From positions 96,001-160,000 of the IMG/VR virus record IMGVR_UViG_3300033233_000004: a DNA stretch of 64,000 nucleotides; one strand, 5' to 3'. The position numbers and the translations under genes are program-made. The stretch is from a virus. Under the pieces are notes generated by a model, which searched no databases, was not told the DNA's origin, and saw only the letters and a program-made list of their open reading frames with translations. Positions 28,876 to 49,458 of the stretch are shown here, one piece after another (position 1 is the stretch's first letter; each line of letters starts with the position of its first letter).

Positions 28876-28889
28876 AGTACCTTCCTTTT

Positions 28890-30221: not shown

Positions 30222-30253
30222 TTTAAGTCCTTTGACATTATGAACAAATAGAG

Positions 30254-30342
30254 CGGAGAGGTAGGGACTCGAACCCTATTGGGAGCTTTCGCCCCCCACG
30301 GTTTAGCAGACCGTTGCGACGCACCATCTTCGCCGCCTCTCC
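30254..30342 (-). tRNA. tRNA-Ser(GCT)
   Basis: Cloverleaf, loop CTGCTAA, long variable arm. Confidence 0.92.
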
Positions 30343-30395
30343 ATGCAAGTTTTCAAATAATGTCAATACTTAGGAGACCTTGCAACCCATACGAA

Positions 30396-30704
30396 CTAAT
30401 TCAACATTTCCATCCGTTTCACAGATAATAACATTCTTACAGTAAATACATTGGCTTCATCTTCCATATCATGACATTCACAAACAGGAAAGAAGACCAA
30501 TCTTGAAGTACCATCACCACGAGACCCAAATCCAAGAGCAGCCTCATCACCATCTGGAAGAATTACACCCCAATTATTAGTCGATGCTGTACAAATCCAG
30601 CAAGATGCATAACTGTTCTTTAATGAAGCAATCTTATTTTTGATAGCTTTGCTGAATTCTTCTATAGTTGGTATATTCATACAGTTTTCGCCAATCCTGT
30701 TCAT
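30396..30704 (-). CDS. Hypothetical Cys-containing protein
   Basis: CWIC...CECH. Confidence 0.55.
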   Translation of the reverse strand: MNRIGENCMNIPTIEEFSKAIKNKIASLKNSYASCWICTASTNNWGVILPDGDEAALGFGSRGDGTSRLVFFPVCECHDMEDEANVFTVRMLLSVKRMEMLN

Positions 30705-30744
30705 TATTTATCTCTGTTCACAAAAAATGAACATATCAAAAAAT

Positions 30745-30990
30745 GAACACAATGAGCTTACGCCAACTTCTGCTTTAGGTCATGATTTCTCTTGCGGCCT
30801 GTACCCGCCTTCATCGGTAAAGAATGCGTCTACCTCTGGCTGTTTCAGTTGCACACATACTGGTGGTACTATCGAACTGACCGTAGCTTTCAGGGCTACG
30901 ACCAGTTCTCCCGCTCATTCTTAGTGTGGTCGGACGTTTCTCTCATCCCTATTCCTACAGGGATAGAGCCATGACTTCTCTGTTGTGTTT
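30745..30990 (-). ncRNA. rnpB: Miniature RNase P RNA (about 246 nt)
   Basis: P1 AACACAA/UUGUGUU; P2 GUCAUGG/UCAUGAC; P3 AUCCCU...AGGGAU; P4 ACG(U)CCGAC/GUUGGCGU with bulged U; GUGCAACUGAAA S-domain motif. Confidence 0.8.
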
Positions 30991-31196
30991 CATTTCATAC
31001 TTCTCGTTCAAACAATACAAACACATTTGTTGCGTTGCATAACCGTTATCCAATTCATATCTCTTTGTTTCAACATATGCATGATGTTTGAATATATGAC
31101 ACAGTATTGCTCTACCGAGAGGTTTCAACGAACCTACATATATCACTATCCTCGGAAAAAGATACGGAATTCGTATGACAATTGGATTTTTCATTG

Positions 31197-31269
31197 TGTA
31201 GGTGAAGAGATTCGAACTCTCACGCCAGCGTTGGCAACGCCGTATGCTAACCATTAACATCACACCTAC
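31197..31269 (-). tRNA. tRNA-Gly(GCC)
   Basis: Cloverleaf, loop TTGCCAA. Confidence 0.88.
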
Positions 31270-31354
31270 AAAAACTTAGCTGTCTCATATTGCTCTATCG
31301 TGCGACATTCAACCCATACGAATCTTAATAGGCACTCCTATCCGAATGGGTTTG

Positions 31355-31429
31355 TAGCCTCAGAAGGAGTTGAACCCTCAAATCTCTGCGTTCGAAGCGC
31401 AGCATGTTATCCAGTTACACCATGAGGCC
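31355..31429 (-). tRNA. tRNA-Arg(TCG)
   Basis: Cloverleaf, loop CTTCGAA. Confidence 0.88.
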
Positions 31430-31639
31430 AAAATGAATCTTTTACAGTTCGACCAACATCAAGGTCAAAGTCGAGTTCAAAATAGAAGCAACTTACGTTA
31501 CCTTGTATTTAACAAGTTCCACCGACAGAAAGCGTTTGGTAGTAAGTAAGGGAGACTATTATCGACTGGCGGTGCCATAACCGTTAGTCCAGTTGATGCT
31601 TTCGTCTTCTTCTTTATGGCAAGTACTCCTATTTTTTTG

Positions 31640-31710
31640 AGCGGGTAGTGGTAGTTGAAACCACGTCCGATGGTTGGAAGCCACCTATAATACCGTTATA
31701 CGATACCCGC
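31640..31710 (-). tRNA. tRNA-Gly(TCC)
   Basis: Cloverleaf, loop CTTCCAA. Confidence 0.85.
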
Positions 31711-31711
31711 A

Positions 31712-31966
31712 TTATTCTTTATCCCAAAAATTCACATTAGAAAAATCGTGTGGTAAACCTAATGAATCTTCTAATTTATTCAATTGATAATTTTGATAAT
31801 CTAATTGCTGTTGTTGAAGCTTGTATAGAGACTCATATTGCATACGTTGAGCTTTTGCTGTTACATATGTTCCATGTTCTTTAACAAGAGAGTTTAATTC
31901 AATACAGAACCAAAGAAGTGCAGTAACTAATAAAAGAGTCATTACTACTTTTATAACATTCATCAT
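31712..31966 (-). CDS. Hypothetical membrane-anchored protein
   Basis: N-terminal TM segment plus coiled coil. Confidence 0.55.
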   Translation of the reverse strand: MMNVIKVVMTLLLVTALLWFCIELNSLVKEHGTYVTAKAQRMQYESLYKLQQQQLDYQNYQLNKLEDSLGLPHDFSNVNFWDKE

Positions 31967-32025
31967 GCAACCTTATTTGATTGTTTTCTCTGAAAATCAA
32001 CCATTAAAGGTTGATTATAACTTTG

Positions 32026-32099
32026 TACCCATGGCGAGACTCGAACTCGCATCGACGTAGGGTTTAAGCCTACCGAATATGCCATTCTTCTACATGGGC
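32026..32099 (-). tRNA. tRNA-Leu(TAA), short variable loop
   Basis: 74-nt cloverleaf, loop CTTAAAC. Confidence 0.8.
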
Positions 32100-32101
32100 A
32101 T

Positions 32102-32130
32102 AATGTACACAAACGAAAATCAAAAGTCAA
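32102..32130 (-). promoter_or_regulatory. Sigma70-type early promoter
   Basis: TTGACT-17-TACATT. Confidence 0.6.
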
Positions 32131-32182
32131 GAGAAATCTAAATAAAAATAGAGTTGCTGGCAGGATTCGATACCTGCCATTG

Positions 32183-32737
32183 TTATACGCCATGCGTTGC
32201 GGCAACTTCCAGCTGCACATCGCTGGCAATCTCGTTTCCCCATGTATCCCACCCGTCAACTCTTCGACGGGCGAACAATTCAACGCGAGGATTCAATCCT
32301 TTCGTCGCTCGTTCAATTAACTGGCGAAATTCTTCTGGCTTCTCACTGTGTCGCAATGCTTTCAACTGGAGAAAATTCGGTTCTTGACATCTAAAAGCCT
32401 TCACACGCCCACGTACACCAACAAGGATATGCTCTGTTTGTCCTCTGAACCAATAGCCCATTCCGAGACTCATTATCTTGCGCCACGTCAGCATTGTCTT
32501 GAAGGAATATCCCCACGCCCTGAGAACTTGAAACCCTTCTTCCATCATCGGAACGGTTACCCAAAGAAAAAGCACACTGTTGTTATCAGCAATTTCGCGC
32601 ACGTTCAATCGACAAATTTCATCAACAGTCATTGTCTTGTATTGGTATTCTGCCCCGCTTTGCATAGACTCACCCGTTTTCTTGTTTCGATATGTCCACG
32701 GGGGGTCTGCATATATTATCTGATATCGTTTTTCCAT
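32183..32737 (-). CDS. MT-A70 family N6-adenine methyltransferase
   Basis: IYADPPW, LFLWVT, GMGYWFRGQTEH, HSEKP, ELFAR, GWDTWGNE. Confidence 0.9.
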   Translation of the reverse strand: MEKRYQIIYADPPWTYRNKKTGESMQSGAEYQYKTMTVDEICRLNVREIADNNSVLFLWVTVPMMEEGFQVLRAWGYSFKTMLTWRKIMSLGMGYWFRGQTEHILVGVRGRVKAFRCQEPNFLQLKALRHSEKPEEFRQLIERATKGLNPRVELFARRRVDGWDTWGNEIASDVQLEVAATHGV

Positions 32738-32861
32738 TGCTCAAATCGTTGCCGCAAAACACGCACGGCGTATAACAAGCGGGTTAACGCAAGCCCTACC
32801 CAAATTGGTTTTGAAAAGCATCGTCTGGCAAGCCCTTCGCCTGCTCCAACCCGACTGGACG

Positions 32862-33125
32862 TTAGCCGCCATTTCGCTTACGCACATTTTCTTTACGCCA
32901 AAGTGCAAGCCCTGATCGTCCAGCAAGTTTGTCAACAACCGTAAATGCACCACGTATAAATTGACGACGTTCTTCTTCTGTTGCAAACCCGTGATGTTTT
33001 GGGAAATCGGCTGGTATAGCCCAGCAGTTAAGTTTAGTCCACCACCGTGCCAACCGAGCGCGCAAACGGCGGCTCACAATCGTGCTTACGTCGCTCACTC
33101 TTTTAGATTTCTTCATAGAATTCAC
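32862..33125 (-). CDS. Hypothetical cassette-borne protein
   Basis: Stop codon lies in the GGCTAAC boundary. Confidence 0.5.
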   Translation of the reverse strand: MNSMKKSKRVSDVSTIVSRRLRARLARWWTKLNCWAIPADFPKHHGFATEEERRQFIRGAFTVVDKLAGRSGLALWRKENVRKRNGG

Positions 33126-33186
33126 TCAACACCTTTCTCATTCATAAAAAGCGTGGAGTTCGGTGTGTGCATTGTTGGCGCACACG

Positions 33187-33477
33187 TTAACTGCAAGGTG
33201 GCGGTGGAAGTGGCATCCAATGCGTTATATTGAACGCAAACTCCGTTCCTTCCCATTCGCAATTATGGCTTATTCCTTCTCTTGTTTTCATTGTCATAAA
33301 TGATGATAAGTAACCAACCCTAATATCTTTCCTTTCCTCTCCCGTATGCGTTTTCCAATCATCAAACAATAGAACTTCTTTTCCTAATTCAGGTAGTTTG
33401 TCAACCACCGCTACCCAGTTAACACCACCTTGCTGCAATGCGGGTTTCTTCTTACTTTTTGAGTTTGTAGTTTTCAT
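33187..33477 (-). CDS. DUF551-like protein
   Basis: WVAVVDKLPE...ITHWMPLPPPP. Confidence 0.75.
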   Translation of the reverse strand: MKTTNSKSKKKPALQQGGVNWVAVVDKLPELGKEVLLFDDWKTHTGEERKDIRVGYLSSFMTMKTREGISHNCEWEGTEFAFNITHWMPLPPPPCS

Positions 33478-33691
33478 ATTATTTTGTTTTTATAGTTAAG
33501 TTTTCCACTTCACAGTCAATCCTGCCAAGTTGTATCATCAGGCCGTCTGTCTTTGATTTCGTGCCAAGCAATTAGTCGAATGAAATCAATCTGTGTAAAA
33601 GCGTCCATTGCTCACTCCTTTGATGTTTGAATTGTGTTCGCAACGTCGGACTTACGCCGTCACGCTGGTTGCCATGCGGTGCATTTTATAG

Positions 33692-33925
33692 TCACCGCTC
33701 GACAAGCGTATCGTGCAAATCTCGGTCTGGTTTCGGTACAACCTTTGCATTGCCGGGGACATATCCCCACCGAGTCCCACAGCAAAGGCATTCGTACTGT
33801 ATTACACCGATCAGTGGCGTTCCCGGAGGATCACCAGTTCCAGCTATTCTTGAATAATCTGGAATGTATGAATCATCAACTCTCATCACGTATTTACAAA
33901 CACATTCTCTATGGCTCATTTTCAT
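33692..33925 (-). CDS. Hypothetical Cys-rich protein
   Basis: ECVC...YECLCCG. Confidence 0.45.
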   Translation of the reverse strand: MKMSHRECVCKYVMRVDDSYIPDYSRIAGTGDPPGTPLIGVIQYECLCCGTRWGYVPGNAKVVPKPDRDLHDTLVER

Positions 33926-34090
33926 TTTACCCCGCTCAAATTATTGTACGCACCGACAACTAACAATGCAAAAGTACGGCACTGGCCGAAAGGAACTTAT
34001 CTCCTCGATTTACCACGCCCCGATAAGTGGATGACGTAGACAAGCATAAGGCACAATCTGCTTTAGCGTCTATCTTCCGCCACAGCACCT

Positions 34091-34166
34091 TGGTGCTCCC
34101 ACTACGAATCGAACGCAGGTCTCTTGAGTGTAGGTCAAGCGTGATACACCACTCTACTATAGGAGC
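34091..34166 (-). tRNA. tRNA-Val(TAC), C33
   Basis: Cloverleaf with CCA, loop CCTACAC. Confidence 0.85.
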
Positions 34167-34175
34167 AAAATTATG

Positions 34176-34247
34176 TACTCTCAAAAGGAATTGAACCTTC
34201 ATCTTAGATTTAGGAAATCCATATCCTATCCATTGGACGATGAGAGC
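34176..34247 (-). tRNA. tRNA-Arg(CCT)
   Basis: Cloverleaf, loop TTCCTAA. Confidence 0.88.
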
Positions 34248-34335
34248 AAATGCAATGGTCAGACGACTCCCGATAGCCTTATACAGATTCATCTTGCGAC
34301 TGGTAGAAGCTACCCTTTAACGTTCGTATTAATAG

Positions 34336-34409
34336 TACCCACGGTCAGACTCGAACTGACACTGTACGGCTTCTCGAACCGTTCCCTCTACCAATTGGGC
34401 TACGAAGGC
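34336..34409 (-). tRNA. tRNA-Leu(GAG), short variable loop, C33
   Basis: Cloverleaf, loop TCGAGAA. Confidence 0.72.
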
Positions 34410-34464
34410 GGTACGAGTGATTTTAACGAAGATGAGTAAAATCAAATCCGCCAAACGGTCTTAG

Positions 34465-34538
34465 TACTACGTAGGAGCCTCGAACTCCTAATCTCCTGAT
34501 TGAAAGTCAGGTGAGTTATCCATTTCCTCTAACGTAGC
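34465..34538 (-). tRNA. tRNA-Glu(TTC)
   Basis: Cloverleaf, loop CTTTCAA. Confidence 0.88.
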
Positions 34539-34564
34539 ATTTAGTCGAATCTGAAAGTTCAACT

Positions 34565-34741
34565 CTATTCGTCGCCCTTTTTCGTACAAGTGCAGGGTGA
34601 ATATCTTTTGCACTTGCAATTATTACATTGATGCTCTGGCTGTTTATTTGTTGAAGCCCGAAGTTGTCGAAGACCTTTATACTTAGTTGGGTCAAATGCT
34701 GTAACTACACCGCGCATATCTACTGTTGTTCCATTATTCAT
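34565..34741 (-). CDS. Small Cys-rich protein (58 aa, below the ORF-track cutoff)
   Basis: MNNGTTVDMRG...HQCNNCKCKRYSPCTC. Confidence 0.45.
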   Translation of the reverse strand: MNNGTTVDMRGVVTAFDPTKYKGLRQLRASTNKQPEHQCNNCKCKRYSPCTCTKKGDE

Positions 34742-34891
34742 CGAGTTCTTTCCGTTTCATGTAACCGCATAATTCTCAGACTCTCGGATCGCCAATTGTC
34801 CCTCTGCTATCCGTCTGCTAATACTATTCCGTCCCTTGCCATCAAACGAAGTACTTCTTGCTGCCGAGCAGTGAGTATCACATAAGGATGG

Positions 34892-35143
34892 TTAATAGTC
34901 TTCACAGTCATAACATCTGCACTCTGCACAATGCTTAACACCATGGTTGTGTTCGTCTGCCAGTTCAGCATCGTTACACCACGTACCACATTTCTCACAT
35001 TCTACGACACTGTTCTCCGAAAGATAGTGCTCCAACTCTTCGAGGTCAGAAAACGCCAATCCATACTTTTGGAGTATGTCAGCTATGCTTTGAGCAGTTC
35101 CTAACAAGTCGTCAGCAATCTTCGCTTTGAGTTCGAGTTCCAT
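34892..35143 (-). CDS. Hypothetical Zn-ribbon protein
   Basis: CEKCGTWC...CAEC; start MELELK. Confidence 0.55.
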   Translation of the reverse strand: MELELKAKIADDLLGTAQSIADILQKYGLAFSDLEELEHYLSENSVVECEKCGTWCNDAELADEHNHGVKHCAECRCYDCEDY

Positions 35144-35147
35144 CAAC

Positions 35148-35657
35148 TTAGACCTTGATACATAGATAACTGAACCCGCTACCTTTTCTGTACATCTTGG
35201 TGATTTGACAACCACCAAAGACTCCATGCACCCATTTCATATATACATGTAAACGTTTGTTTGCTTGCCATGTGCCTGTTTTCCCGATACAAGGTCTTCC
35301 ACTACGATTTCCTTCATATACAGAAATGTAGATGCAACCACCAACCTTCACATGTCGTCTTGCCAACCAAAGCACTTCTGTAATACCAGTAGATGTCTCG
35401 ATGACATTTAGAACATTACACAAAGTAACAGTGTCATAGTCATATCGTTCGAGCATTCTGGCATTGTGGTCGGATGTTCTATTGTAGGGGTCATAGATGA
35501 AGTTCCCTACACTTCGTTCCGCCAAATATTTAGTTGCTTCCTCGAACTTTCCACCACCAATATCCAGATTGCTGGTATGTGGATACCAGTTTACTAACTT
35601 AAACACTGCTGGTATCTGCTTGATACAGGTTCGTGCTGAACGATGTATTGTATCCAT
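35148..35657 (-). CDS. Small class I SAM-dependent methyltransferase
   Basis: NLDIGGG, YDPYN, YDTVTLCNVLNVI. Confidence 0.8.
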   Translation of the reverse strand: MDTIHRSARTCIKQIPAVFKLVNWYPHTSNLDIGGGKFEEATKYLAERSVGNFIYDPYNRTSDHNARMLERYDYDTVTLCNVLNVIETSTGITEVLWLARRHVKVGGCIYISVYEGNRSGRPCIGKTGTWQANKRLHVYMKWVHGVFGGCQITKMYRKGSGFSYLCIKV

Positions 35658-35671
35658 GGTATCTCCCTTTG

Positions 35672-35760
35672 TGCCCTAAGTGGGACTCGAACCCACAATC
35701 GTTTCTAATGTTTGCCGTAGGGTTTGAGCCTACCGACTTTGCCAGTTTGTCTACAAGGGC
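35672..35760 (-). tRNA. tRNA-Leu(CAA)
   Basis: Cloverleaf, loop CTCAAAC, long variable region. Confidence 0.82.
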
Positions 35761-35936
35761 GTTACTGTATGCATCCGATACTTGTATGTCTCTTCGTGTT
35801 ATCGCATATCGCATATTGCGATATGCAAATGCTCGTTTGGACGGTTTCTTTGTCTTGTGGCTTCACAAGCTCTTTGCGATGCTTAAGAGCCAGATGAACC
35901 AATTGTCGTATCAAACTTCTGCTTGGCTTTTCCATG

Positions 35937-36010
35937 TACCACATAAGGGCCTCGAACCCTTAATCTTCTGCTTGAGAGGCAGATGTGTTAGCCTATTCCA
36001 CTAATGTGGC
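35937..36010 (-). tRNA. tRNA-Glu(CTC)
   Basis: Cloverleaf, loop CTCTCAA. Confidence 0.88.
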
Positions 36011-36244
36011 ATTTCCGCTCTTTGCTCCCCACTTCATCATCTTCCAGACTCTGTGGTAGATGAAGTACAGCATAATGCGTATACCGATATATGTGAGACT
36101 TGTTTGAATAGAGTGTATTAAGATGTAAATAAGAATCAATCCGAATAATTCCCACACAACGCCTTTTACAAACGTCCGAATATAGCTACGCTTCTTATCT
36201 GTCATCTTATAGTATCCACTTTTCTCCACATTCTTGACATTCAT
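35993..36244 (-). CDS. Small membrane protein (DUF2061-like)
   Basis: KRSYIRTFVKGVVWE...LYFIYHRVWKMMKWG. Confidence 0.55.
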   Translation of the reverse strand: MNVKNVEKSGYYKMTDKKRSYIRTFVKGVVWELFGLILIYILIHSIQTSLTYIGIRIMLYFIYHRVWKMMKWGAKSGNATLVE

Positions 36245-36391
36245 ATAATGACGACTTTGGACGAATGGGTTTGAACTTGACTTCTGGTAAACCTATCAGC
36301 ATTCTTCCATTACTTAGATGAAAGAATCTGCACCACATTCGTCGCCAGAAACTTGGGTCTCTTTTTTCCATATGGCCTTTCTACTTGTTTG

Positions 36392-36466
36392 TACTCGGTG
36401 TAGGATTCGAACCCACGTTGACGCAGAATATAAGTCTGCCGCCTTAACCTGTCGTGCCAACCGAGC
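36392..36466 (-). tRNA. tRNA-Ile(TAT)
   Basis: Cloverleaf, loop CTTATAT. Confidence 0.75.
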
Positions 36467-36577
36467 ATAAAAACCGACAAATAGAATCGAAAACCAAACT
36501 CGTTTAATATACAGTTCGACTATAAATATTGGTCATATCCCTCTATATATATACTATATAGAAAGGATAACTACATC

Positions 36578-37189
36578 ATGACAAATTCCAAACAACGACA
36601 AGTCGAAGGACAACACATTACTGCGGCAATGTCTCATCAACGTTATCTAATACGAATAGAAACATACAAGCAAACTCCAAACTTATGTGCACAGTGTTAT
36701 GCACCGCTTGCTTATAGCCACCGAAAAAACAAATTCTGTTCTCATTCTTGTGCAGCTATTGTTACTAACAGGCTTTTTCCAAAAAGACAACAAACAAATG
36801 GAACAAGAGAATATCGAAGACAAGGAAAATGGCGTAAACAATTTAGAAAAAAAAGGCTCCGTGACCTGACATTACTGGAATATTTAGAACGAACACACGT
36901 TAAACCTCTTCCAGCGATGATAAAGAAATCTGCTCTTCGTTCTTTTGCTCGACATTGGAATCAAGACATTCTCAAAAAACCGTGTGCAAATTGTGGATAT
37001 GATAAACACGTTCAATTAGCACATATAAAAGCAATTCGAGATTTTCCATTAACAGCAACTTTGGGAGAAATTAACTCTCGAACAAACGTCATACAACTTT
37101 GCCCAAACTGTCATTGGGAATTCGATAATACCTTCCTTAAAATCTCTGTAGGGACAGAAGGATTTGAACCTTCAATTTCTCGATTATGA
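36578..37189 (+). CDS. HNH endonuclease
   Basis: CAQC...FCSHSC; CANCGY...AHIK...NVIQLCPNCHWEFD. Confidence 0.85.
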   Translation: MTNSKQRQVEGQHITAAMSHQRYLIRIETYKQTPNLCAQCYAPLAYSHRKNKFCSHSCAAIVTNRLFPKRQQTNGTREYRRQGKWRKQFRKKRLRDLTLLEYLERTHVKPLPAMIKKSALRSFARHWNQDILKKPCANCGYDKHVQLAHIKAIRDFPLTATLGEINSRTNVIQLCPNCHWEFDNTFLKISVGTEGFEPSISRL

Positions 37190-37221
37190 GCCGAGCGGAT
37201 TAGCCATTCTCCTATATCCCT
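37149..37221 (-). tRNA. tRNA with CAT anticodon (Ile2 or elongator Met)
   Basis: Cloverleaf, loop CTCATAA. Confidence 0.82.
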
Positions 37222-37298
37222 AAAAAGTACGTACCCCCAAAGAGGACTCGAACTTGGATGTTACTCGCTACTGCCGACCTCAACCCCACTATAATTTT

Positions 37299-37763
37299 TT
37301 ACGGAACAGGTCGTAATGATGTTATATTTCTATTACCATCTACTCCAATTCTGAATGTTGCACCAACTTCGACAAACTGAGCAAGCAACTCACTGTATGG
37401 ACTAATTACAGTAATGCCAAATTCTTTATTACCTTGCTCGTTACCAATCTGGTCATTCCATTGATTAACTAATGAAAGTACTGGCTCCTGAAATTGATTT
37501 ACCGGAACTCCTCGTAAAACATTGGTGTTGGATTGAACCACGCCAACAAAACCTTCAGTACTATACAAAAATGCTTGTCCATTATCCCAAGCAGAAAGTG
37601 TTACAACACCTACTTTCTCCAAAGACTGTACAGTAGTGGAGATTGGATTAATGTTTGAATCTGATGCTTGTGTACAGCCAGAACAATACAAACAAACTGC
37701 TGTAAACAAAAGCAACAAACTGGCTGAAAATATCTTAACTGCTTTAGCCGTTTGACTCTTCAT
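37299..37763 (-). CDS. Putative lipoprotein
   Basis: Signal peptide ending CSGC; AAGGAG SD. Confidence 0.6.
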   Translation of the reverse strand: MKSQTAKAVKIFSASLLLLFTAVCLYCSGCTQASDSNINPISTTVQSLEKVGVVTLSAWDNGQAFLYSTEGFVGVVQSNTNVLRGVPVNQFQEPVLSLVNQWNDQIGNEQGNKEFGITVISPYSELLAQFVEVGATFRIGVDGNRNITSLRPVP

Positions 37764-37821
37764 ATAAGTATCTCCTTAAATTATGTGATTTGTTATTTTA
37801 GTGAATTAGTGTTGTGAATTG

Positions 37822-37898
37822 TACCCTTGATGGGAATTGAACCCACATTTTCATCCGTTATGCACGTTCTGCTTAGAAGGCAGAGCCATTACAAGGGC
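37822..37898 (-). tRNA. Atypical tRNA-Arg(TCT) lacking a D arm
   Basis: Acceptor, anticodon (CTTCTAA) and T arms intact; 7-nt D-replacement loop; 21-nt variable region. Confidence 0.65.
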
Positions 37899-37986
37899 AA
37901 ATCTAATTGTGACTGGCTTACAGCATATCATAAGTTCACTTACAAACGAAGCTACTATCATGCAAGGGTTTGTCTGTAAGCCATCG

Positions 37987-38057
37987 TCCGCCCAAGAGGA
38001 ATCGAACCTCTATTACCAGTATATCGGACTGGCTTCCTACCGTTGAAAGACAGGCGG
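37987..38057 (-). tRNA. tRNA-Ile(GAT), C33
   Basis: Cloverleaf, loop CCGATAT. Confidence 0.78.
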
Positions 38058-38133
38058 AAAAGTATATCTTATTTACTTGGTTCATCAAGGTTAATACGAG
38101 TAAACTCATCAATGTCGATGTTGTGCGCCATGC

Positions 38134-38343
38134 TTAGTTTATCCCCTGCCGACATCCACAATTCTGACAGTAATCGGTATATTCGGGCCGATCAATGTGT
38201 ACCACCATTTCAGCGTGGGGATCGCCGCACAGAATCACTTTTCGATGAACTCGATCATACACAATCGAATCTGCGGGTCGATCACAGTCATCGTCGGGAT
38301 ATTCGCACTTGTCTTTTCCAGTCAAATGTCGTACTTCGCTCAT
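38134..38343 (-). CDS. Small Cys-rich hypothetical protein
   Basis: AAGGAG SD; CEY..C...CQNCGC. Confidence 0.6.
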   Translation of the reverse strand: MSEVRHLTGKDKCEYPDDDCDRPADSIVYDRVHRKVILCGDPHAEMVVHIDRPEYTDYCQNCGCRQGIN

Positions 38344-38495
38344 AAAGTTCTCCTTTCATTTAATCGGCATCGCACTACCCACTAAAAATACAAAGAATAA
38401 AGGGACAATGTGGAACCCAAAGTCAACTTAGCCGCCTTACCATGCTGTGTACGGGAGACAGGAGTAAACCGTACATGAGAACATTGTCCATTGAG

Positions 38496-38569
38496 TGGAC
38501 ACAGGTGAGATTCGAACTCACAACCTCCGCATTGCAGGTGCGGCGCATTCCCATTAATGCTACTGGCCC
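38496..38569 (-). tRNA. tRNA-Ala(TGC), C33
   Basis: Cloverleaf, loop CCTGCAA. Confidence 0.82.
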
Positions 38570-38688
38570 CAAAAAGTCATTACACTGGTCAACCACTGCG
38601 CTACCCATCTGGATTGCTCTATGCGGTTATGGATTGTCTCCGCCGAATAGTCCAGCATAAGCCTTGTCCGTTGTATGCAATGACTTTG

Positions 38689-38761
38689 TACCATCATACA
38701 GATTCGAACTGTATCTTTGAAGTCCACAACTTCACGTGCTATCCATTAACACTATGATGGC
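38689..38761 (-). tRNA. tRNA-His(GTG)
   Basis: Cloverleaf, loop TTGTGGA. Confidence 0.88.
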
Positions 38762-39058
38762 ATAATACTTCCAGACCCAACGTTTGAGGGTTATAAAGAC
38801 CCAAGTCTGGAAGTTATTTTTATACTATGTTCCCATCCACCGCTTATGCAGCAGATACACTGTCCATTCAGCCTCACAATTATGACGACCGTTAAAGTGG
38901 GAACTTCTTTTTTTAACCTCTGGCGAAGTTGTCTCCGCTTTCCACTCGACTGGCGAACGATTTGAGAAGTAGGTTTCGAGCCTTGTTTCATTTGTCGTTC
39001 CTAAATCAGAGGGTGTTACCTGAATCATTCTCTTAAATTGTCGTCCAATGATTCATTG

Positions 39059-39135
39059 CAGGACGTAGAGGAATCGAACCTCTTCGCTATTTGCACAGGT
39101 TTTGGAGACCTGCCGGAGACCATCTCCCACGTCCC
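39059..39135 (-). tRNA. tRNA-Trp(CCA)
   Basis: Cloverleaf, loop CTCCAAA, slightly long variable loop. Confidence 0.8.
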
Positions 39136-39356
39136 ATTTGTGGTACCTTCCATAGAACCTCTTAAGATGCTGAGAAAGATACCATAATTTTATTAAGTCC
39201 CTTATCTGCGGTTTTTGCACAGTGAACTGTGCAAAAATACTCACAAAGGGACTATAAATACGGGATAACCTACAGGTGCGACCTGCTTCTGTATCGTCGG
39301 ATTATCAGCGACTATCCAATATCAAGATTCCCTTGAATCCTGTTCTTGGAGTGGTG

Positions 39357-39432
39357 TAGCAAGAGCAGGATTCAAACCTGCGATTTCTTGATTATGAGTC
39401 AAGCGAGGACGGTCAGACTCCTCTATCTTGCA
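39357..39432 (-). tRNA. tRNA-Met(CAT), initiator-like
   Basis: Loop CTCATAA; unpaired 1:72. Confidence 0.8.
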
Positions 39433-39433
39433 G

Positions 39434-39507
39434 TCAAGGTGACAGGATTCGAACCTGCGACTTTCTGGCCCCAAACCAGACGCTCTACCAGACTGAGCCA
39501 CACCCTG
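39434..39507 (-). tRNA. tRNA-Pro(TGG)
   Basis: Canonical cloverleaf, loop TTTGGGG. Confidence 0.92.
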
Positions 39508-39597
39508 AAGTTATCTAAAAAACAAACCATTTTGACTACGCTCTGAATCTCGTTTACAACCATTGCAGAATTTGACCATAAAAATCAACTACCTTAG

Positions 39598-40010
39598 TGG
39601 ACGTGTCGGCAATCGAAGCCGAGTCCAAAGTACTACTAATAAAAAATCATTCACAGGTTTAGTCAGGCTTAGAACTCTTTGGTGCCACTACAAACCCGAC
39701 GAACTCAGGCAACCGCAACAAAGCATTTGTTCAGTCCACGGTGCTTTGTACCTTCCGTGTTTCGCCATCTCCACCATCTGGTTTTTTGTCGTTGTGAGGT
39801 GTGTCAAACAGACCATATACCAGAACCTCACGAACTTATACCATTACTGGCACAAGTTCACTCTCGTCTGCAAAGACCAAAATACCAGCCTCGTCAACGA
39901 AAGCCGTAGAAGATTTAGCTTCTGCGTTTGTGTTTTTTAGTTACATTACGGTGTAACAACCCCGACCTGCATTCTTTACTAATTTTACCCTGTCGAATCC
40001 TTTCACGCCC
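39598..40010 (-). ncRNA. ssrA: tmRNA
   Basis: 5' GGGCGTGAAAGGATTCGAC; 3' T arm TCGGCTTCGATTGCCGA-CACGTCCA with G3.U; tag ORF 39925-39836 resuming at GCA. Confidence 0.9.
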
Positions 40011-40046
40011 ATTGTATTACAACTATCTCTTTTTTCTCTGCTCTTT

Positions 40047-40319
40047 TTACAAGTGTCGATGACCAGTGTATACAAAATGCTTTCTGTAAATTTCTCGTGT
40101 TGGTTTCCTATTACTACCATTTGTTAAGAACAACTCAGGATGCTCATCTCCTTGTTTGGTAACAAATACCGAAAAGGTATTACAAGCTAAGAATTCGTCA
40201 GCACATCTTTTCTGGAATACACATGTATCACAAGGCGACGGAACCAGAAGTTCACCCATGGATGCTTCAATTATGGATGCTTCTTCCTGCGTAAGATATT
40301 TTTGAATAAGATTACTCAT
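40047..40319 (-). CDS. Hypothetical Cys-containing protein
   Basis: AAGGAG SD directly behind a promoter; PCDTC...RC...LAC. Confidence 0.65.
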   Translation of the reverse strand: MSNLIQKYLTQEEASIIEASMGELLVPSPCDTCVFQKRCADEFLACNTFSVFVTKQGDEHPELFLTNGSNRKPTREIYRKHFVYTGHRHL

Positions 40320-40337
40320 GTATCTCCTTGTTTGAGT

Positions 40338-40366
40338 AATATACTCATATCATCTGTAAAAGTCAA
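40338..40366 (-). promoter_or_regulatory. Sigma70-type early promoter
   Basis: TTGACT-17-TATATT. Confidence 0.7.
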
Positions 40367-40386
40367 GTGAAGTCTAAACTTTTTTG

Positions 40387-40459
40387 TGGGGCAAGTAGGA
40401 GTCGAACCTGCTTATCTGGATTTTCAGTCCAGCACACTGACCACCAGTGTTATCACCCC
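40387..40459 (-). tRNA. tRNA-Phe(GAA)
   Basis: Cloverleaf, loop CTGAAAA. Confidence 0.88.
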
Positions 40460-40648
40460 AATAAGAGGCTGTCTCTAATGTATGTCTCCTACAGTGCAAC
40501 AGCCTCTTGGCTCTCGAAGGAGTCCTTTATTTGCTTTGTAGGCTAACAGCTTGTTTTTACCACAACGTCTTGTAGTATGGGTCAAGCATTATTCCCATGT
40601 CCTGTATCTCAACATCCCATAGAACGTTGAGGTTCAGTTTTTTGAAAA

Positions 40649-40722
40649 TCGTCCCTGTCGGAATCCGACCGACATCTCTCCTTGAAAATAAGGAGTGTTC
40701 TAAGCAGTTAAACTAAGGGCAT
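40649..40722 (-). pseudogene. Degenerate tRNA-like sequence
   Basis: D, anticodon and T arms present, but the loop is not 7 nt and the acceptor stem is frayed. Confidence 0.45.
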
Positions 40723-40724
40723 TT

Positions 40725-40952
40725 CTATGATTTCGATATTTCATTTACACCATGTTTTTCTAAGCAGTCTGGCGTAATACAATTTCCTTCTGAATCAACT
40801 TGTATTGGGCCACAACCTTCACAGAGAACTACAGCATATAATCCTTGTGCTTCTTCTTCTATTGTTGTTATTCCAACAAAATCACCTTTATGAATGTCAC
40901 CACCATTATGTGGATATAAATTCTCTGCACATTGTCTACAGAATTCTGCCAT
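40725..40952 (-). CDS. Hypothetical Cys-rich protein
   Basis: MAEFCRQC...LCEGCG...GNC; GGAG SD. Confidence 0.65.
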   Translation of the reverse strand: MAEFCRQCAENLYPHNGGDIHKGDFVGITTIEEEAQGLYAVVLCEGCGPIQVDSEGNCITPDCLEKHGVNEISKS

Positions 40953-41134
40953 ATTATCTCCTCTTTGGTAATCTTATTTCACTACGTCCATCATTAGGGT
41001 CGAAAGACTCGTATCCACGATACCTAAAGAATTGTTGTGACTTTTTATTCTTATCTAACACAACGTTATTCTTGACTATTCTAAAACCAGTTGGATATTG
41101 GTCAATAAGTTTTCGCTGTTGTTTATTATGCTTT

Positions 41135-41350
41135 TCATTGCTTAAAAATGTCATCTGAGGCTCCAACTAAAATCTCTCCATGGGCACCTTTTAAAAGAAT
41201 AACATTTACACCCTTTTCAAATAGGTTTCGTGCCACTTTATACTCATCGACATTAGTCAGAACCTGATTGTGTTTGTAACCAGAGTCTTTGATAGCTTTA
41301 ATTTCTCGATGAGAGGTATGCCATGCAAACACTGTTACTTTTTCAGCCAT
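41135..41350 (-). CDS. Hypothetical protein
   Basis: Packed small ORF. Confidence 0.55.
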   Translation of the reverse strand: MAEKVTVFAWHTSHREIKAIKDSGYKHNQVLTNVDEYKVARNLFEKGVNVILLKGAHGEILVGASDDIFKQ

Positions 41351-41352
41351 AT

Positions 41353-41583
41353 TTACCCTTTGTCAAAATGTTTGTATTTTTCGGTAAAGGATACAAATCT
41401 GACTTCTATATCTTGCAATGCATCTGAAACACAAGCGTAAGGGCCATACGTAGTAATCATATTACCATGAATCACCATAGTAGCATACCAACAACCATTT
41501 CCCTTGTCCCAATAGATACCACAACCATCTTGTTCAGTACCACAGGTAAAATGTCTTGTTCTTTTATCATATGTCCATACCAT
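41353..41583 (-). CDS. Hypothetical protein
   Basis: AGGAG SD. Confidence 0.6.
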   Translation of the reverse strand: MVWTYDKRTRHFTCGTEQDGCGIYWDKGNGCWYATMVIHGNMITTYGPYACVSDALQDIEVRFVSFTEKYKHFDKG

Positions 41584-41600
41584 AGAATCTCCTGTTTACG

Positions 41601-41691
41601 CGGTAAGTGACGGATTCGAACCCTCAAAACATCTTTCGACGTTCAACCAATTTTCAAGATTGGGCCTCGCACCAATGAGGTCAGACTTACC
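41601..41691 (-). tRNA. tRNA-Ser(TGA)
   Basis: Cloverleaf, loop CTTGAAA, long variable arm. Confidence 0.88.
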
Positions 41692-42099
41692 AAAACTAAC
41701 CTATTTTGAATACTATCTATAATTTGAACATTTGTGCAAGGCAAAACAGACACAAATACCCAACCGTTATCTGCAAGCCGTTGTCATTCGTAGCGGCTCA
41801 CTGCCATCACCTAATTTCCGTTGTGGCACGACCTATCCGCTTTTTTCTGTCAAGCCAAATTCGTTGTTTCCGACAATGAAAAACTCATGCTCTCTGTCAT
41901 CAATGAGATAATCATCGTCCTGTAATTCCGGTTTGTTCTTGGTGACAAATACTACTCCGTTGGGTTGTAATGCTAACCATACCTTTATCTTCATGTCTTT
42001 CGCTCCTTTTCAAAATCTAAACAGGTGAGGTTTTGAATCTCTGGTTCATCTGCTGATACTACAGATGCGTCTTCTTCTCTTTAGACGATACCTGTTGTG

Positions 42100-42171
42100 A
42101 GCCGCAAATGTGAATCGAACACACACCACCTGACATACCAAGTCAGTGCACTACCATTATGCTACTGCGGC
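42100..42171 (-). tRNA. tRNA-Thr(GGT)
   Basis: Cloverleaf, loop TTGGTAT. Confidence 0.88.
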
Positions 42172-42185
42172 ATTACTTATTATTA

Positions 42186-42257
42186 GGCCAACGACTTGAC
42201 TTGAACAAGCATCTCTCGATTACGAAACGAGAATTCTACCACTTAAACTACGCTGGC
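42186..42257 (-). tRNA. tRNA-Thr(CGT)
   Basis: Cloverleaf, loop TTCGTAA. Confidence 0.8.
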
Positions 42258-42415
42258 GTTTCTTTCTTCCACATAATGGTAGATAATCTCACCAAATGGA
42301 ACGACAGTGACCTTTGACTTCATTTGAGAAGTTTGAGGAGTCTTTGGATGTCCAAAAAAAGCACTATAAATCCAAGCTCCAATTAACATTGATATAAGGT
42401 TAAGTCCCATGATGT

Positions 42416-42444
42416 AATGTACATAATCGTAAATCAAAAGTCAA
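42416..42444 (-). promoter_or_regulatory. Sigma70-type early promoter
   Basis: TTGACT-17-TACATT. Confidence 0.65.
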
Positions 42445-42461
42445 GGTAAATCTGAACTATT

Positions 42462-42536
42462 TGGAGCCACAAATCCGATTCGAACGGATGCCATTATCTT
42501 ACAGGGATAATATACTTCCAACTATACTATTGTGGC
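42462..42536 (-). tRNA. tRNA-Thr(TGT), C33
   Basis: Cloverleaf with CCA, loop CCTGTAA. Confidence 0.82.
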
Positions 42537-42540
42537 ATTG

Positions 42541-42612
42541 AGACCAGAGTGGAATTCGAATCCACATACGTAGTTTTGCGGACTACTACCTAAGCCCTTC
42601 GGTCATCTGGTC
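42541..42612 (-). tRNA. tRNA-Cys(GCA), C33
   Basis: Cloverleaf, loop CCGCAAA, U73. Confidence 0.85.
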
Positions 42613-42823
42613 AATGTCTAATTAAACGTTGCTACTTCAACAACCAATTGGGATTTCTGTCATAGTTGTTGCGAGCATAAAGTATGACAGAAATAACATT
42701 CGCCTTTTGGAAACTTTGGTAAAACTTTCATATGCTCAATTTCAATCTCAAAGAATGCTTCCAACTCTTCATTTGATTTAAGATGGAATTTCTTTTTATT
42801 TCATCAATGAATCTACCCATGTG

Positions 42824-42895
42824 CTGCGGACGAATGAATCGAACATTCATGATAGGCTTCAGAGACCTACATCTTATCCATTAGATGAATCCGCA
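42824..42895 (-). tRNA. tRNA-Gln(CTG)
   Basis: Cloverleaf, loop CTCTGAA. Confidence 0.85.
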
Positions 42896-42896
42896 A

Positions 42897-43203
42897 TTAT
42901 TTCTTTTTATCAGTTTTCTCACGAGTACGAAGCTCATTAAATAGAGCTACAACAGCGTCCGCCGATTTCAAATCCTTCTTGCGTTCTATTGCTCCTACTA
43001 CAGCGTAAGGATAAAAACTTCGCCAAGTATCTGTACTCGCAAAGTACGTGATACTGAATCTATGTTCCCAATTTTGTAATGTAACTACAAGATGGGGTGT
43101 ACCATTGAGTGAAAATCTGAATTCCGCACCTTCAATTTTTTCACCCAACTCTTTAATCTTGGCTTCAATAACTGCTGAGAATTTGGTTATTCTGTTTCCC
43201 ATA
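42897..43203 (-). CDS. Hypothetical protein (start at about MGNRITK)
   Basis: ORF between tRNAs with GAGG SD. Confidence 0.55.
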
Positions 43204-43223
43204 TTAGGTTCCTCAATCTGTTG

Positions 43224-43298
43224 TGGCTCCGACAGCAAGAGTCGAACTTGCAACTCCACGGTTAACAGCCGTGTACTCTGCCATTGAGTTATGTCGGA
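43224..43298 (-). tRNA. tRNA-Asn(GTT)
   Basis: Canonical cloverleaf with CCA. Confidence 0.92.
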
Positions 43299-44043
43299 AT
43301 AAAATCTGATGTTCTATTTCCCGCCAAGAGTAGGATAGGTAACTCTAACAAGTGTTACTCTCACCCGCATACTCGGTGCCTATCTATGTGTATGCGACCC
43401 AAGGTAACACAGCGTACATAGATACATCAGAAAGCTTCAAATTCTCCTATATAACTAATACCATATTCCAAAATAGGAAAATCAGAAGTCATGATTTCAT
43501 CTTCCATACGAAAAGCTTCTATAACAGCTTCTTCTTTTGTCTGAAATACTTTAGAAGTTCCAAAATAACTTCTCAAAGTATCTTTTCTTTCTTGAGAACC
43601 TTCTGGATAATAATCTATATTCTCATTAGATCGTCAGAGGTCTACTCAAAGTGTCTTCTCGACACATCCAGTATCAACAATTCAAAGTAGCGAACTTCAA
43701 ATTTACACTGGTCTTAGTTTTCACCAACGATTGATACCTTATCACGTCCCAAAATAGTTCTTTTGACTGGATTCGAACCAGTAATCATTCGCTTCTTGTG
43801 CACATGGGCGAATACGGGTATTCCGCTCGGCTGCCAGTTTCGACACAAAAGAACACGATATATCTCCTTTTTTTATGAACCAATAGAATAACCACGCTCT
43901 TTTAAAGCAGCAAGTATCTTTTTTGCTTCAGAAATAGCTGCTTCTTTTGTATAACTTTCGTCGCTTATTGAACGAAATCCATACAGAATAGTTGCGATGT
44001 CTTCAACAAATAATTTTTCCATAAAAGTATCCTTCTTTCTTTG

Positions 44044-44128
44044 TGTATCAGGATGGATTCGAACCACCAAGGATTTCTCCTACTTGTGGGTTACAGCCAC
44101 ATGCCTTACCAATTGAGGCTACAGATAC
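44044..44128 (-). tRNA. tRNA-Tyr(GTA)
   Basis: Loop CTGTAAC, long variable arm. Confidence 0.88.
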
Positions 44129-44157
44129 AAACTTGTAATGGACTCCCAAATTTAATG

Positions 44158-44228
44158 CGGAGCCAGAGAGAATCGAACTCTCAATCCTTGCGTGACAGGC
44201 AAGCAGTTTGCCATTAACTTATGACTCC
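44158..44228 (-). tRNA. tRNA-Asp(GTC)
   Basis: Loop CTGTCAC, G73. Confidence 0.88.
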
Positions 44229-46857: not shown

Positions 46858-47109
46858 TGCTTGGCTCTCCTTTCTTGGCTCGGACACCGTGTCCTTGCAT
46901 ACTACAATATAACACATGACATTTTTGTCGTTCACTCGGTTGCGATTCTGTTCTGTGTTCGCAAGTCAACACGGTCTAAGTCATTACGCATCGGTCAATA
47001 ATTCTGTCAAGAGCGTTTCCCGAATTGCGCTCGATCTCGTTTGGAAGTTGCCGATTGCCGCTCACGCTCACAAGAAAATTTATTTTCAAGAGCCTGATTC
47101 CTGTTCCGA

Positions 47110-47343
47110 CTGTCATCTCATACACACGTGCGAGTTGCAACGGGGAATCATGAATCAAATCAGAATCTCAGCAAACTGTCATCTCATACACACGTGCGAG
47201 TTGCAACATCTGACCGAGCCGTAAGATGTTGATCGCAGCATTCCTGTCATCTCATACACACGTGCGAGTTGCAACACGAACACTCTCTTCTATGAGGATG
47301 ATTACCACAAGCTGTCATCTCATACACACGTGCGAGTTGCAAC
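47110..47343. CRISPR. CRISPR array: 4 identical 32-bp repeats, 3 spacers (34, 36, 36 bp)
   Basis: CTGTCATCTCATACACACGTGCGAGTTGCAAC at 47110, 47176, 47244 and 47312. Confidence 0.95.
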
Positions 47344-47369
47344 CACTATACAAATCTGTCAACACCAGT

Positions 47370-48650
47370 CTATACAATCTGTATAGCTTCCGCTAACCCA
47401 AACTTTTGAGACCCTTCTGACTCGATACACCCGTCAGTCGGTGAGACGAACGTCTCTTTACAGGCTTGCGCCTGTTGGCTCTGACCGAGCCTTAAGATGT
47501 TAATAGCAGCATTCAAATCTCGATTTATTTCAAGCCCACATTCGCATGTATATATTCGTTCCGCTAACGTCTTCTTTTGCACACGACCACACTGTGAACA
47601 TGTACTTGTTGTTCCTGCTGCTTTTACTTTCACAAAGACCCTACCAGCTTCTTCCGCTTTGTAGGCAATCTGATTCAAAAACTGTGACCAACCAGCATCA
47701 GCAATAGACTTATTCAATCCGTTCGGTAAACTTGATTTTGGCTTACATCGCTTAGACATTGTTTTTACGTTCAAATCTTCAACAGCAATCAACCCATACT
47801 GATTTACAAGCGTTCGAGACAATTTATGGTGAAAATCTGCTCGTTGTCTACGAATCTTGGTATGTAAAGCAACAACTCGTTTTTTAGCGTTTTGACGACG
47901 ATTAGAGCCTTTGGCCTTGCGACTCAAACTTTGTTGTGCTTCGGTTAGCGCAACCGCCGCCTTACGATACCAACGAGGGTTTTCTATTGCCTGTCCAGTA
48001 GATAACATAGCAAAGGTGTTCAAACCAACATCAATACCGACTTGTTTGTCGGTATTAGGTAATCTTTGACAAGGTACATTATTACAAGAAAATACAACAT
48101 ACCACTCATTTGCTTCTCGTTTGATTATTGTAGTCTTGATTGTCCCAAGAATACTGCGGTCTATCTTGACACGAACAAGACCAATGTTCAAGAATCTTAC
48201 AACGAATCTACCACTTGGGAGCTTCACAAGTTTACAACCAGAACCGTATGTTGGATACACAAGACTATCCCATCTATCTCGTCCTTTGAATCGAGGAAAA
48301 CCTGCGGCTTTACCTGCACCTACTTGTACACGTTTCTCGAATGCCTTGTAAGCCTTATGTAGACGGTCTAATACCGCATTACAAGTTTGTGCTGGTACTT
48401 GACCAAGACCAGCAGGGTCAGAAATACGGGCTTCTGGATAAAATCTCATCTGGTCATACGCAGTAAGCGATGATACAGAAGACGTATATTTCTTTTTGTT
48501 CTCATTCCAAAACTTGGGTGTAGACTTGTACTGATGTATACGCTGTTCCAACGCAGCATTATACAGAGACCGAGTTGCATTCAATTGTAACTCAAGTTTC
48601 TGAATTTGAACCTTGTTAGGATACAAACGATATTTAAATGATTTACGCAT
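47370..48650 (-). CDS. TnpB-derived miniature type V effector (Cas12f/TnpB-like), 426 aa
   Basis: FKYRLYP N-terminus, GFPRFK, RuvC-I GIDVG, RuvC-II AVEDL, CSQCG...CECG Zn finger, RuvC-III NRDLNAAINI; array starts 26 nt after the stop; no tnpA adjacent. Confidence 0.88.
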   Translation of the reverse strand: MRKSFKYRLYPNKVQIQKLELQLNATRSLYNAALEQRIHQYKSTPKFWNENKKKYTSSVSSLTAYDQMRFYPEARISDPAGLGQVPAQTCNAVLDRLHKAYKAFEKRVQVGAGKAAGFPRFKGRDRWDSLVYPTYGSGCKLVKLPSGRFVVRFLNIGLVRVKIDRSILGTIKTTIIKREANEWYVVFSCNNVPCQRLPNTDKQVGIDVGLNTFAMLSTGQAIENPRWYRKAAVALTEAQQSLSRKAKGSNRRQNAKKRVVALHTKIRRQRADFHHKLSRTLVNQYGLIAVEDLNVKTMSKRCKPKSSLPNGLNKSIADAGWSQFLNQIAYKAEEAGRVFVKVKAAGTTSTCSQCGRVQKKTLAERIYTCECGLEINRDLNAAINILRLGQSQQAQACKETFVSPTDGCIESEGSQKFGLAEAIQIV

Positions 48651-48660: not shown

Positions 48661-49086
48661 CTAAATCATAAGTACGTCTATACTGACTTGATACGCCAGT
48701 ACTGTATGTTGATTGTAATATTGTTTCGTGAATTTGGCAATCTTAATAATATCTTCTCTGGAACAACTAATACGCACTGGTATCATTGGCTCAACAATAA
48801 GAGTTTTTGTTTGTGGATGTATCCAAGTACCTTTGGCTGTTTTGAGTAATGTCATTCCTTCTGAAAGTGAATAAACGAAATCATCCCATTGTTGATGGTA
48901 AGAAACTGAAATTTCATTACCATCCTTATCATTTGCTGGTACCAAAATCTCCCACATCATTACAGGAATAGATGGCAATTCAAAAAAAGCACGCGCATGA
49001 CGAATACGATCTTGTTCTGCAAAAAGAGTATGCACTAACAAACTGCCATTACTAAGCCGTTGTTTTAAACATTTAAAACTACTCAT
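48661..49086 (-). CDS. Conserved hypothetical phage protein
   Basis: MWEILVP...HQQWD...KGTW...EPMIPVRI. Confidence 0.6.
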   Translation of the reverse strand: MSSFKCLKQRLSNGSLLVHTLFAEQDRIRHARAFFELPSIPVMMWEILVPANDKDGNEISVSYHQQWDDFVYSLSEGMTLLKTAKGTWIHPQTKTLIVEPMIPVRISCSREDIIKIAKFTKQYYNQHTVLAYQVSIDVLMI

Positions 49087-49429: not shown

Positions 49430-49458
49430 AATATACACAAATAAAAAATCAAAGTCAA
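49430..49458 (-). promoter_or_regulatory. Sigma70-type early promoter (could read through to the effector gene)
   Basis: TTGACT-17-TATATT. Confidence 0.7.

Follow-up and report, generated by a model that had tools for sequence, protein, structure and literature searches.

A tnpB gene followed by a repeat-spacer array

The stretch of DNA analysed here (the window, 64,000 nucleotides) comprises bases 96001–160000 of the 171,836-bp IMG/VR phage record IMGVR_UViG_3300033233_000004, which has direct terminal repeats and is rated complete. On its minus strand it carries a tnpB gene that is directly followed by a short repeat-spacer array of the CRISPR type. The gene (47370..48650) encodes a 426-aa ISDra2-type TnpB and ends in a TAG stop codon at 47372–47370; the array begins 26 nt past this stop codon on the same strand, and no terminator lies between the two. 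A first-pass annotation, made from the sequence alone, had read this arrangement as a phage-encoded minimal CRISPR system built on a near-unmodified TnpB. The layout it described stands, in that the array is real, directly downstream, on the same strand and devoid of adaptation genes. The functional half of the proposal, i.e., the tie between TnpB and the array, is positional only.

The TnpB protein carries the Pfam domains HTH_OrfB_IS605 (9e-12), OrfB_IS605 (i.e., RuvC; 1.5e-29) and Cas12f1-like_TNB (i.e., the zinc ribbon; 7e-23). In an alignment with 24 homologues, the RuvC residues D207, E291 and D378 and the zinc-finger cysteines C354, C369 and C371 were invariant, and the remaining zinc-finger cysteine (C351) was nearly so, confirming the intact RuvC D-E-D triad that had been noticed in the first-pass annotation. 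The best solved match by sequence was ISDra2 TnpB (E-value of 1.4e-44, full length), and the best Foldseek matches of the AlphaFold model (predicted local distance difference test score, pLDDT, of 83.8; tail residues 402–426 disordered) were 8H1J and 8EXA, with template modelling (TM) scores of 0.78–0.85. No added REC or WED domains were present. Moreover, Cas12n, LaTranC and Cas12f matched the protein only partly or less well: the LaTranC match was confined to the C-terminal 150 residues, and that of the Cas12n structure 9J09 to residues 170–390. By sequence and predicted fold, the phage protein is a near-unmodified, catalytically intact ISDra2-type TnpB, as had been claimed. Its closest counterparts among 5.8 billion protein clusters were only 50% identical and were plain stand-alone TnpBs (353–393 aa) on bacterial contigs without room for arrays; no relative above 50% identity was found in any collection searched.

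The array consists of four identical 32-nt repeats (minus-strand sequence GTTGCAACTCGCACGTGTGTATGAGATGACAG) at 47312..47343, 47244..47275, 47176..47207 and 47110..47141 (repeats 1 to 4, respectively, in minus-strand order). Between them lie three different spacers of 36 nt (spacer 1, 47276..47311), 36 nt (spacer 2, 47208..47243) and 34 nt (spacer 3, 47142..47175), all on the minus strand, which gives a repeat period of 66–68 nt. Four exact 32-mers at this spacing cannot arise by chance, and the four repeats, three unique spacers and 26-nt distance from the tnpB stop codon reported in the first-pass annotation are thereby borne out. The array is the only such one in the 171,836-bp genome, and no degenerate extra repeats were found on either flank (the 'TTGACAG' found in the 26-nt gap looks similar to 'ATGACAG', with which the repeat ends, but is wrongly spaced).

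The most distinctive feature of the locus is spacer 2, a piece taken from a sister allele of the preceding tnpB gene. Read in frame, spacer 2 encodes NAAINILRLGQ, and it matches 32/35 nt of a self-like protospacer in the phage's own tnpB (47480..47514, minus strand; the same codons, with a 5′ coding-strand flank of ATTT). The three internal mismatches, at guide positions 10, 13 and 23, are all synonymous (GCT/GCG, ATT/ATC and AGG/CGG), and the likeness to tnpB ends exactly at the repeat boundaries. Moreover, spacer 2 keeps the phage-specific 'GGTCAGA', for which other relatives have 'GGACGGA'. Together with the synonymous differences, this points to a close sister allele of this very tnpB, and not to a random TnpB, as its source, and no sister allele matching spacer 2 was found in any collection searched. 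Judging by the known behaviour of TnpB and Cas12 nucleases, the mismatches at positions 10 and 13, which would be proximal to the transposon-associated motif (TAM) in type V orientation, should spare the phage's own copy. The TTT in the 5′ flank of the self-site fits that orientation, a weak sign that was noticed after the fact.

The guide RNA of the TnpB clade and its scaffold in the phage

Across about 100 related loci, the guide RNA of this clade is a conserved RNA located in the 3′ end of tnpB and the next 12–67 nt. This omega-RNA starts with a hairpin (GGCUC-GGACG-GAGCC) within the 'LGRS' codons, continues into a variable stem region and closes with a terminal module, GAGAAGCC-stem-loop-stem-GGAGnnGUCAC, in which compensatory changes are plentiful. 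A covariance model of the clade omega-RNA (R1) was checked on 80 independent viral loci and recovered the expected site in nearly all of them, with scores of 15–83 bits. Two further covariance models (R2 and R3), built from 39 and 102 sequences, represent the terminal module.

In the phage, R1 detected an omega-RNA-like scaffold in the 3′ end of the tnpB open reading frame (ORF; 47408..47493, minus strand) with a score of 17.6 bits, i.e., at the low end of the above range, and an E-value of about 1e-3. Hairpin 1 reads GGCUC-GGUCA-GAGCC and is accompanied by a GCAA-capped stem and further hairpins. The scaffold (47493–47408) overlaps the C-terminal coding region, including part of the disordered protein tail, an overlap that has also been described for Cas12n. 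Going by sequence, the phage TnpB keeps a recognisable but diverged omega-RNA scaffold, the terminal module of which has departed from the clade consensus.

One viral relative, 44% identical to the phage TnpB (L109:2559-2819, from IMGVR_UViG_3300024181_000003), has two tandem identical copies of the ~93-nt omega-RNA scaffold, both scoring 67.5 bits. About 75 nt of unique sequence separate the copies and a different sequence follows each of them, so that the locus amounts to a natural two-unit 'omega-RNA array'. This duplicate indicates that the TnpB clade does multiply guides in phages.

Residence of tnpB in the phage genome

The tnpB gene starts 10 nt past the stop codon of a 141-aa phage ORF (48661..49086, minus strand), the product of which is 38% identical to a PhiJL001 protein, and this short distance leaves no room for a transposon left end. 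On the 3′ side of tnpB, the clade right-end motif GGAGnnGTCAC is absent, and both R2 and R3 score at noise level. Comparison of paired insertion sequence (IS) copies from relatives places the right end of the transposon immediately behind GTCAC; the left-end flanks in these pairs are heterogeneous and permit no TAM inference. Furthermore, no Y1 TnpA, serine recombinase, Cas1, Cas2, Cas4, Cas6 or repeat-associated mysterious protein (RAMP) was found in the complete 171,836-bp genome, which extends to the whole phage the absence of tnpA, cas1, cas2 and cas4 that had been reported for the window. Since TnpA, space for a left end and the right-end motif are all missing, tnpB is immobilised. Its G+C content (GC 0.41; GC3 0.33) matches that of the phage, whereas its relatives are GC-rich, which argues for a long-term resident gene. 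The gene is thus a long-resident, domesticated or stranded one and not a recent insertion, and the word 'recent' in the first-pass annotation is not supported. Being intact, phage-like in GC content and immobilised, tnpB is likely kept for something other than transposition.

The genes around the tnpB-array locus all lie on the minus strand. The promoter at 49430–49458, behind which the gene had been placed as part of an early operon, is no more than a match to 10/12 consensus positions. Another promoter-like sequence, TTGCCA-17-TACAAT (10/12), is situated at 48712–48740 of the window on the minus strand, inside the upstream 141-aa ORF and about 60 nt before the tnpB start, and tnpB therefore need not depend on the promoter at 49430–49458. 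Past the array, an unusually long non-coding stretch of 252 nt (46858..47109; GC 0.46) could be a leader if the array were read on the plus strand, or else a promoter region of the next gene. No significant anti-repeat was found in this stretch. A perfect palindrome, GGACACGGTGTCC, occurs in it near 46874–46886, just ahead of the ribosome-binding site of the next gene.

The carrier is a tailed, low-GC (about 38%) phage with a sheath gene and a ribonucleotide reductase. No close relatives of it were found in GenBank phages or IMG/VR, and a search via the flanking genes found neither sibling phages nor an empty site. A dense block of 35 tRNA genes, together with a transfer-messenger RNA (tmRNA) call with an odd tag peptide, occupies 27335–44228 of the window, all on the minus strand, just downstream (on that strand) of the tnpB-array locus.

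Apart from two TnpBs, the complete 172-kb genome has no Cas-like genes. The second one (genome 81713–82924; L017:1135-2346; minus strand) is intact, lies outside the window about 61 kb upstream of the locus, and encodes a 403-aa protein with 34% identity to the TnpB of the locus. Its 3′ flank is GC-rich and omega-RNA-like, and no array accompanies it. Because the clade model R1 finds no match there, this second TnpB belongs to a different TnpB lineage. Finally, a 229-aa ORF (genome 19378–20067; L181:579-1268; minus strand) considered as Cas7/RAMP-like was rejected: it had no Pfam match (at E-values up to 1) and no PADLOC match, and PF03787 found nothing genome-wide.

Possible uses of the array

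We tentatively read the locus as a TranC-like minimal type V system in which TnpB uses the array. The immobilised ISDra2-type TnpB would then serve the phage for RNA-guided cleavage of DNA, with the 3′ end of the tnpB ORF encoding the scaffold (tracr-like) part of the guide RNA and the array, co-transcribed on the same strand, supplying interchangeable guides of 34–36 nt. Spacer 2 would be aimed at the sister tnpB allele in a related co-infecting phage or element, and the phage's own allele would escape, as it departs from the guide by a synonymous change at each of positions 10, 13 and 23. Such a system may serve competition between phages (i.e., superinfection exclusion) and possibly cassette homing. 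We further infer binding of the array RNA by TnpB, processing of this RNA, a TAM or protospacer-adjacent motif (PAM), and spacer acquisition. What connects nuclease and array is their position: given ~250 intergenic sites, an array would come to follow either of the two tnpB genes directly and on the same strand by chance with a probability of about 1%. This low figure, together with the failure to find a host repeat (see below), favours a functional link, as do the lack of Cas-like genes other than the two TnpBs and the duplicated scaffold of L109; the singleton status of the association and the lack of an RNA-level connection leave that link unproven.

Comparable loci have been described. 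TnpB-derived CRISPR loci have about 50 independent origins and, in nearly all of them, the array lies downstream of the gene (PMC10691335). The TranC clades 3 and 9 (Jin et al., Cell 2025, as summarised in PMC13565253, bioRxiv 10.64898/2026.03.27.714800) have 32–38-nt repeats, a median of 4.5–5 repeats (about 3–20) and an ISDra2-like fold. According to the same summary, clade 9 proteins average 414 aa, and CauTranC9, from a Caudoviricetes genome, is active and unexpanded and has phage-targeting spacers. Measured against these published descriptions, the present locus resembles TranC clades 3 and 9 in its TnpB-sized effector (426 aa), its ISDra2-like fold and its lack of REC/WED expansion, and it resembles TranC in its downstream array, absence of adaptation genes, four 32-nt repeats, phage carrier and putative phage-type spacer target. 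It is unlike TranC, as there described, in being a singleton within an otherwise array-free TnpB clade and in being known from sequence alone. Cas12n (V-U4) and other V-U systems (PMC10691335; PDB 9J09) likewise combine a small TnpB-derived effector with a downstream array, no adaptation module and a scaffold or trans-activating CRISPR RNA (tracrRNA) under the unstructured C-terminal tail of the ORF; in contrast to the phage protein, Cas12n is larger (about 485–544 aa) and has expanded REC and WED domains. The first-pass annotation had seen in the locus a candidate new miniature RNA-guided nuclease; a new kind of system it is not, since TranC, including a TnpB-sized one from a phage, is already on record in the summary cited. 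The locus is probably, at best, a singleton of this already published kind, i.e., of TnpB-sized, unexpanded, array-using nucleases, one of which is in a phage.

Several results weigh against the use of the array by TnpB. Some ~170 related TnpB loci (35–50% identity) contained no comparable array except for one chance neighbour (L092, see below), which makes the effector-array association a singleton, with the qualification that the collections contain no relative above 50% identity. These closest homologues are plain TnpBs without this or a comparable array, which is the first of the two results that the first-pass annotation itself had listed as jointly speaking against its proposal. Matches of the phage protein to the PADLOC models Cas12u2, Cas12f and Cas12u4 were discounted, since equal scores are obtained with plain TnpBs and with the second TnpB of the phage, which has no array. 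Spacers 1 and 3 had no targets in phages, plasmids or IMG/VR, nor did they show a protein-level self-match. The orientation of the array is ambiguous as well. Promoter-like matches are weak on both strands; the one in the 26-nt gap between stop codon and repeat 1 (47344..47369, minus strand), which also takes in the stop codon, reads TAGACT-16-TATAGT and fits 9/12 positions.

The remaining points against it concern the RNA. The candidate 3′ ends of the omega-RNA (47408 by the model, about 47441, and 47356) all lie before repeat 1, and the native omega-RNA seems to end at least 65 nt before that repeat, so that the canonical cis guide would not be a spacer. The idea that the repeat is a copy of the omega-RNA terminal module was rejected, as R2 and R3 scored both the repeats and the native end at noise level. 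The repeat agrees with the native terminal hairpin at 12/14 nt, with a p-value of about 0.03 only if the comparison is restricted after the fact and of 0.13 if it is not, and local alignment of repeat and omega-RNA is not significant genome-wide (13% of shuffles reach the score, and better matches exist elsewhere). Likewise, a search for an anti-repeat or tracrRNA with RNAduplex in the whole genome, the ORF tail and the post-array region revealed nothing beyond background. The best anti-repeat, 8 bp at 47442–47449, passes the published '6 of 10' heuristic and is equalled by 93/500 and 124/500 shuffles (19–25%). With neither a significant omega-RNA likeness in the repeat nor an anti-repeat beyond chance, the 'transition' from TnpB to CRISPR that had been suggested is not supported.

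A less probable, though credible, explanation is that of a host-dependent viral mini-array, in which the repeats copy the CRISPR repeat of an unknown host, the Cas effector and Cas1-Cas2 of that host use the array against related co-infecting phages, and TnpB is an unrelated neighbour that got there by IS landing or through a shared accessory hotspot. Viral mini-arrays without cas genes that target relatives of their carrier are established (PMC6858448; PMC11656645), and spacer 2 fits this pattern. On the plus strand, moreover, the repeat finishes with GTTGCAAC, preceded by a 7-bp hairpin, in the manner of the CRISPR RNA (crRNA) handles of Cas6-type (class 1) systems, which counts at the same time against use by TnpB; the 252-nt non-coding stretch on the plus-strand side could be the leader, and no relation of the repeat to the omega-RNA was detected. 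The mini-arrays of the Saccharolobus portogloboviruses SPV1 and SPV2 (PMC6858448, PMC11656645) are similar in that a short viral array without cas adaptation genes carries a spacer matching a gene of the carrier's close relatives. They differ in that they copy the host repeat and depend on host Cas proteins, whereas the search for a host repeat was negative here and the array adjoins a candidate effector gene. Indeed, the defining feature of a host-dependent array, an identical host repeat, did not turn up when bacterial arrays were searched for a host or donor of the repeat, as had been proposed: exact-match scans were negative for 27-mers across 185,579 species genomes, for 20-mer arrays across Joint Genome Institute (JGI) metagenome contigs and for 32-mers across IMG/VR, and the sole 20-mer match was a chance one inside coding sequence. 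Moreover, the repeat matches no CRISPR-DR or other family in Rfam, no convincing plus-strand promoter was found, and the placement directly downstream of tnpB would have to be the roughly 1% coincidence given above.

That a clade member can come to lie beside a host array is illustrated by Desulfacinum hydrothermale DSM 13146 (L092:938-3160), and this adjacency is a point in favour of an unrelated neighbour. There, an IS605-type element of the clade lies upstream of a Cas6-type host CRISPR array, at a distance of about 310 nt and in the same orientation; the repeat of this array ends in ATCGAAAC, and the array decays toward its far end. We regard it as an example of chance IS-array adjacency.

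Unlikely, to a slightly greater degree, is an ordinary selfish TnpB that acts as a homing-type nuclease with its cis omega-RNA only, beside an array that is either a captured relic or an RNA anti-CRISPR decoy soaking up host Cas proteins. Relatives occur in 442 phage records, TnpA-less TnpBs are common in phages, and the second TnpB of this phage does without an array; the recognisable omega-RNA scaffold has been kept as well. The locus shares with ISDra2 TnpB and its omega-RNA (or right-end-element RNA, reRNA) of IS200/IS605 elements (PDB 8EXA, 8BF8, 8H1J) the domain order, catalytic triad, zinc finger and location of the scaffold RNA in the 3′ end of the ORF. It is unlike them in lacking TnpA, the left end and the right-end motif GGAGnnGTCAC, and in having a repeat-spacer array in place of a single flank-derived guide. 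Decay into a relic is, however, hard to reconcile with four 100% identical repeats and unique spacers of proper length, and spacer 2, which is in frame and has diverged synonymously, speaks for genuine targeting of a sister allele. As for a decoy, repeat-mimic RNAs in phages are documented (PMC10651486), but such RNA anti-CRISPRs (Racrs) typically consist of one solitary repeat in imitation of that of the host, whereas no host repeat was found here and the locus is a full repeat-spacer array.

Rather improbable, too, is a variant in which the locus would spread itself among sibling phages in the manner of an RNA-guided gene drive. The array would have arisen or been captured independently in the ISDra2-like clade and be used by the unexpanded TnpB; spacer 2 would direct the cutting of rival tnpB alleles, and repair from the resident copy would spread tnpB together with the array (i.e., allele-specific homing or marker exclusion). 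The three synonymous changes would protect the resident allele, and recombination between the identical repeats could change which spacer adjoins the cis scaffold. Finally, that the four 32-nt hairpin repeats form no CRISPR array and are protein-binding, regulatory or terminator elements between unrelated sequence is very improbable: the low number of copies (four), the modest hairpin in each repeat (about -5 kcal/mol) and the missing cas adaptation genes would agree with it, but CRISPR arrays typically have such a spacing (66–68 nt) and repeats and spacers of such lengths, and the likeness between spacer 2 and tnpB stops at the repeat boundaries as for an inserted spacer.

Should TnpB not read the array, the locus would be an ordinary viral mini-array beside an ordinary IS remnant, and a caution against inferring function from adjacency. 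If, as we tentatively propose, TnpB does read it, the locus would rank among the smallest CRISPR-type systems in nature and would have originated independently within the TnpB clade that has been studied best (the ISDra2-like one). It would then help to study how a nuclease with a cis omega-RNA accepts trans guides, and would provide a compact scaffold for editors. With its synonymous escape sites, the self-allele spacer presents a clean natural example of phages of the same lineage targeting each other, possibly by RNA-guided homing.

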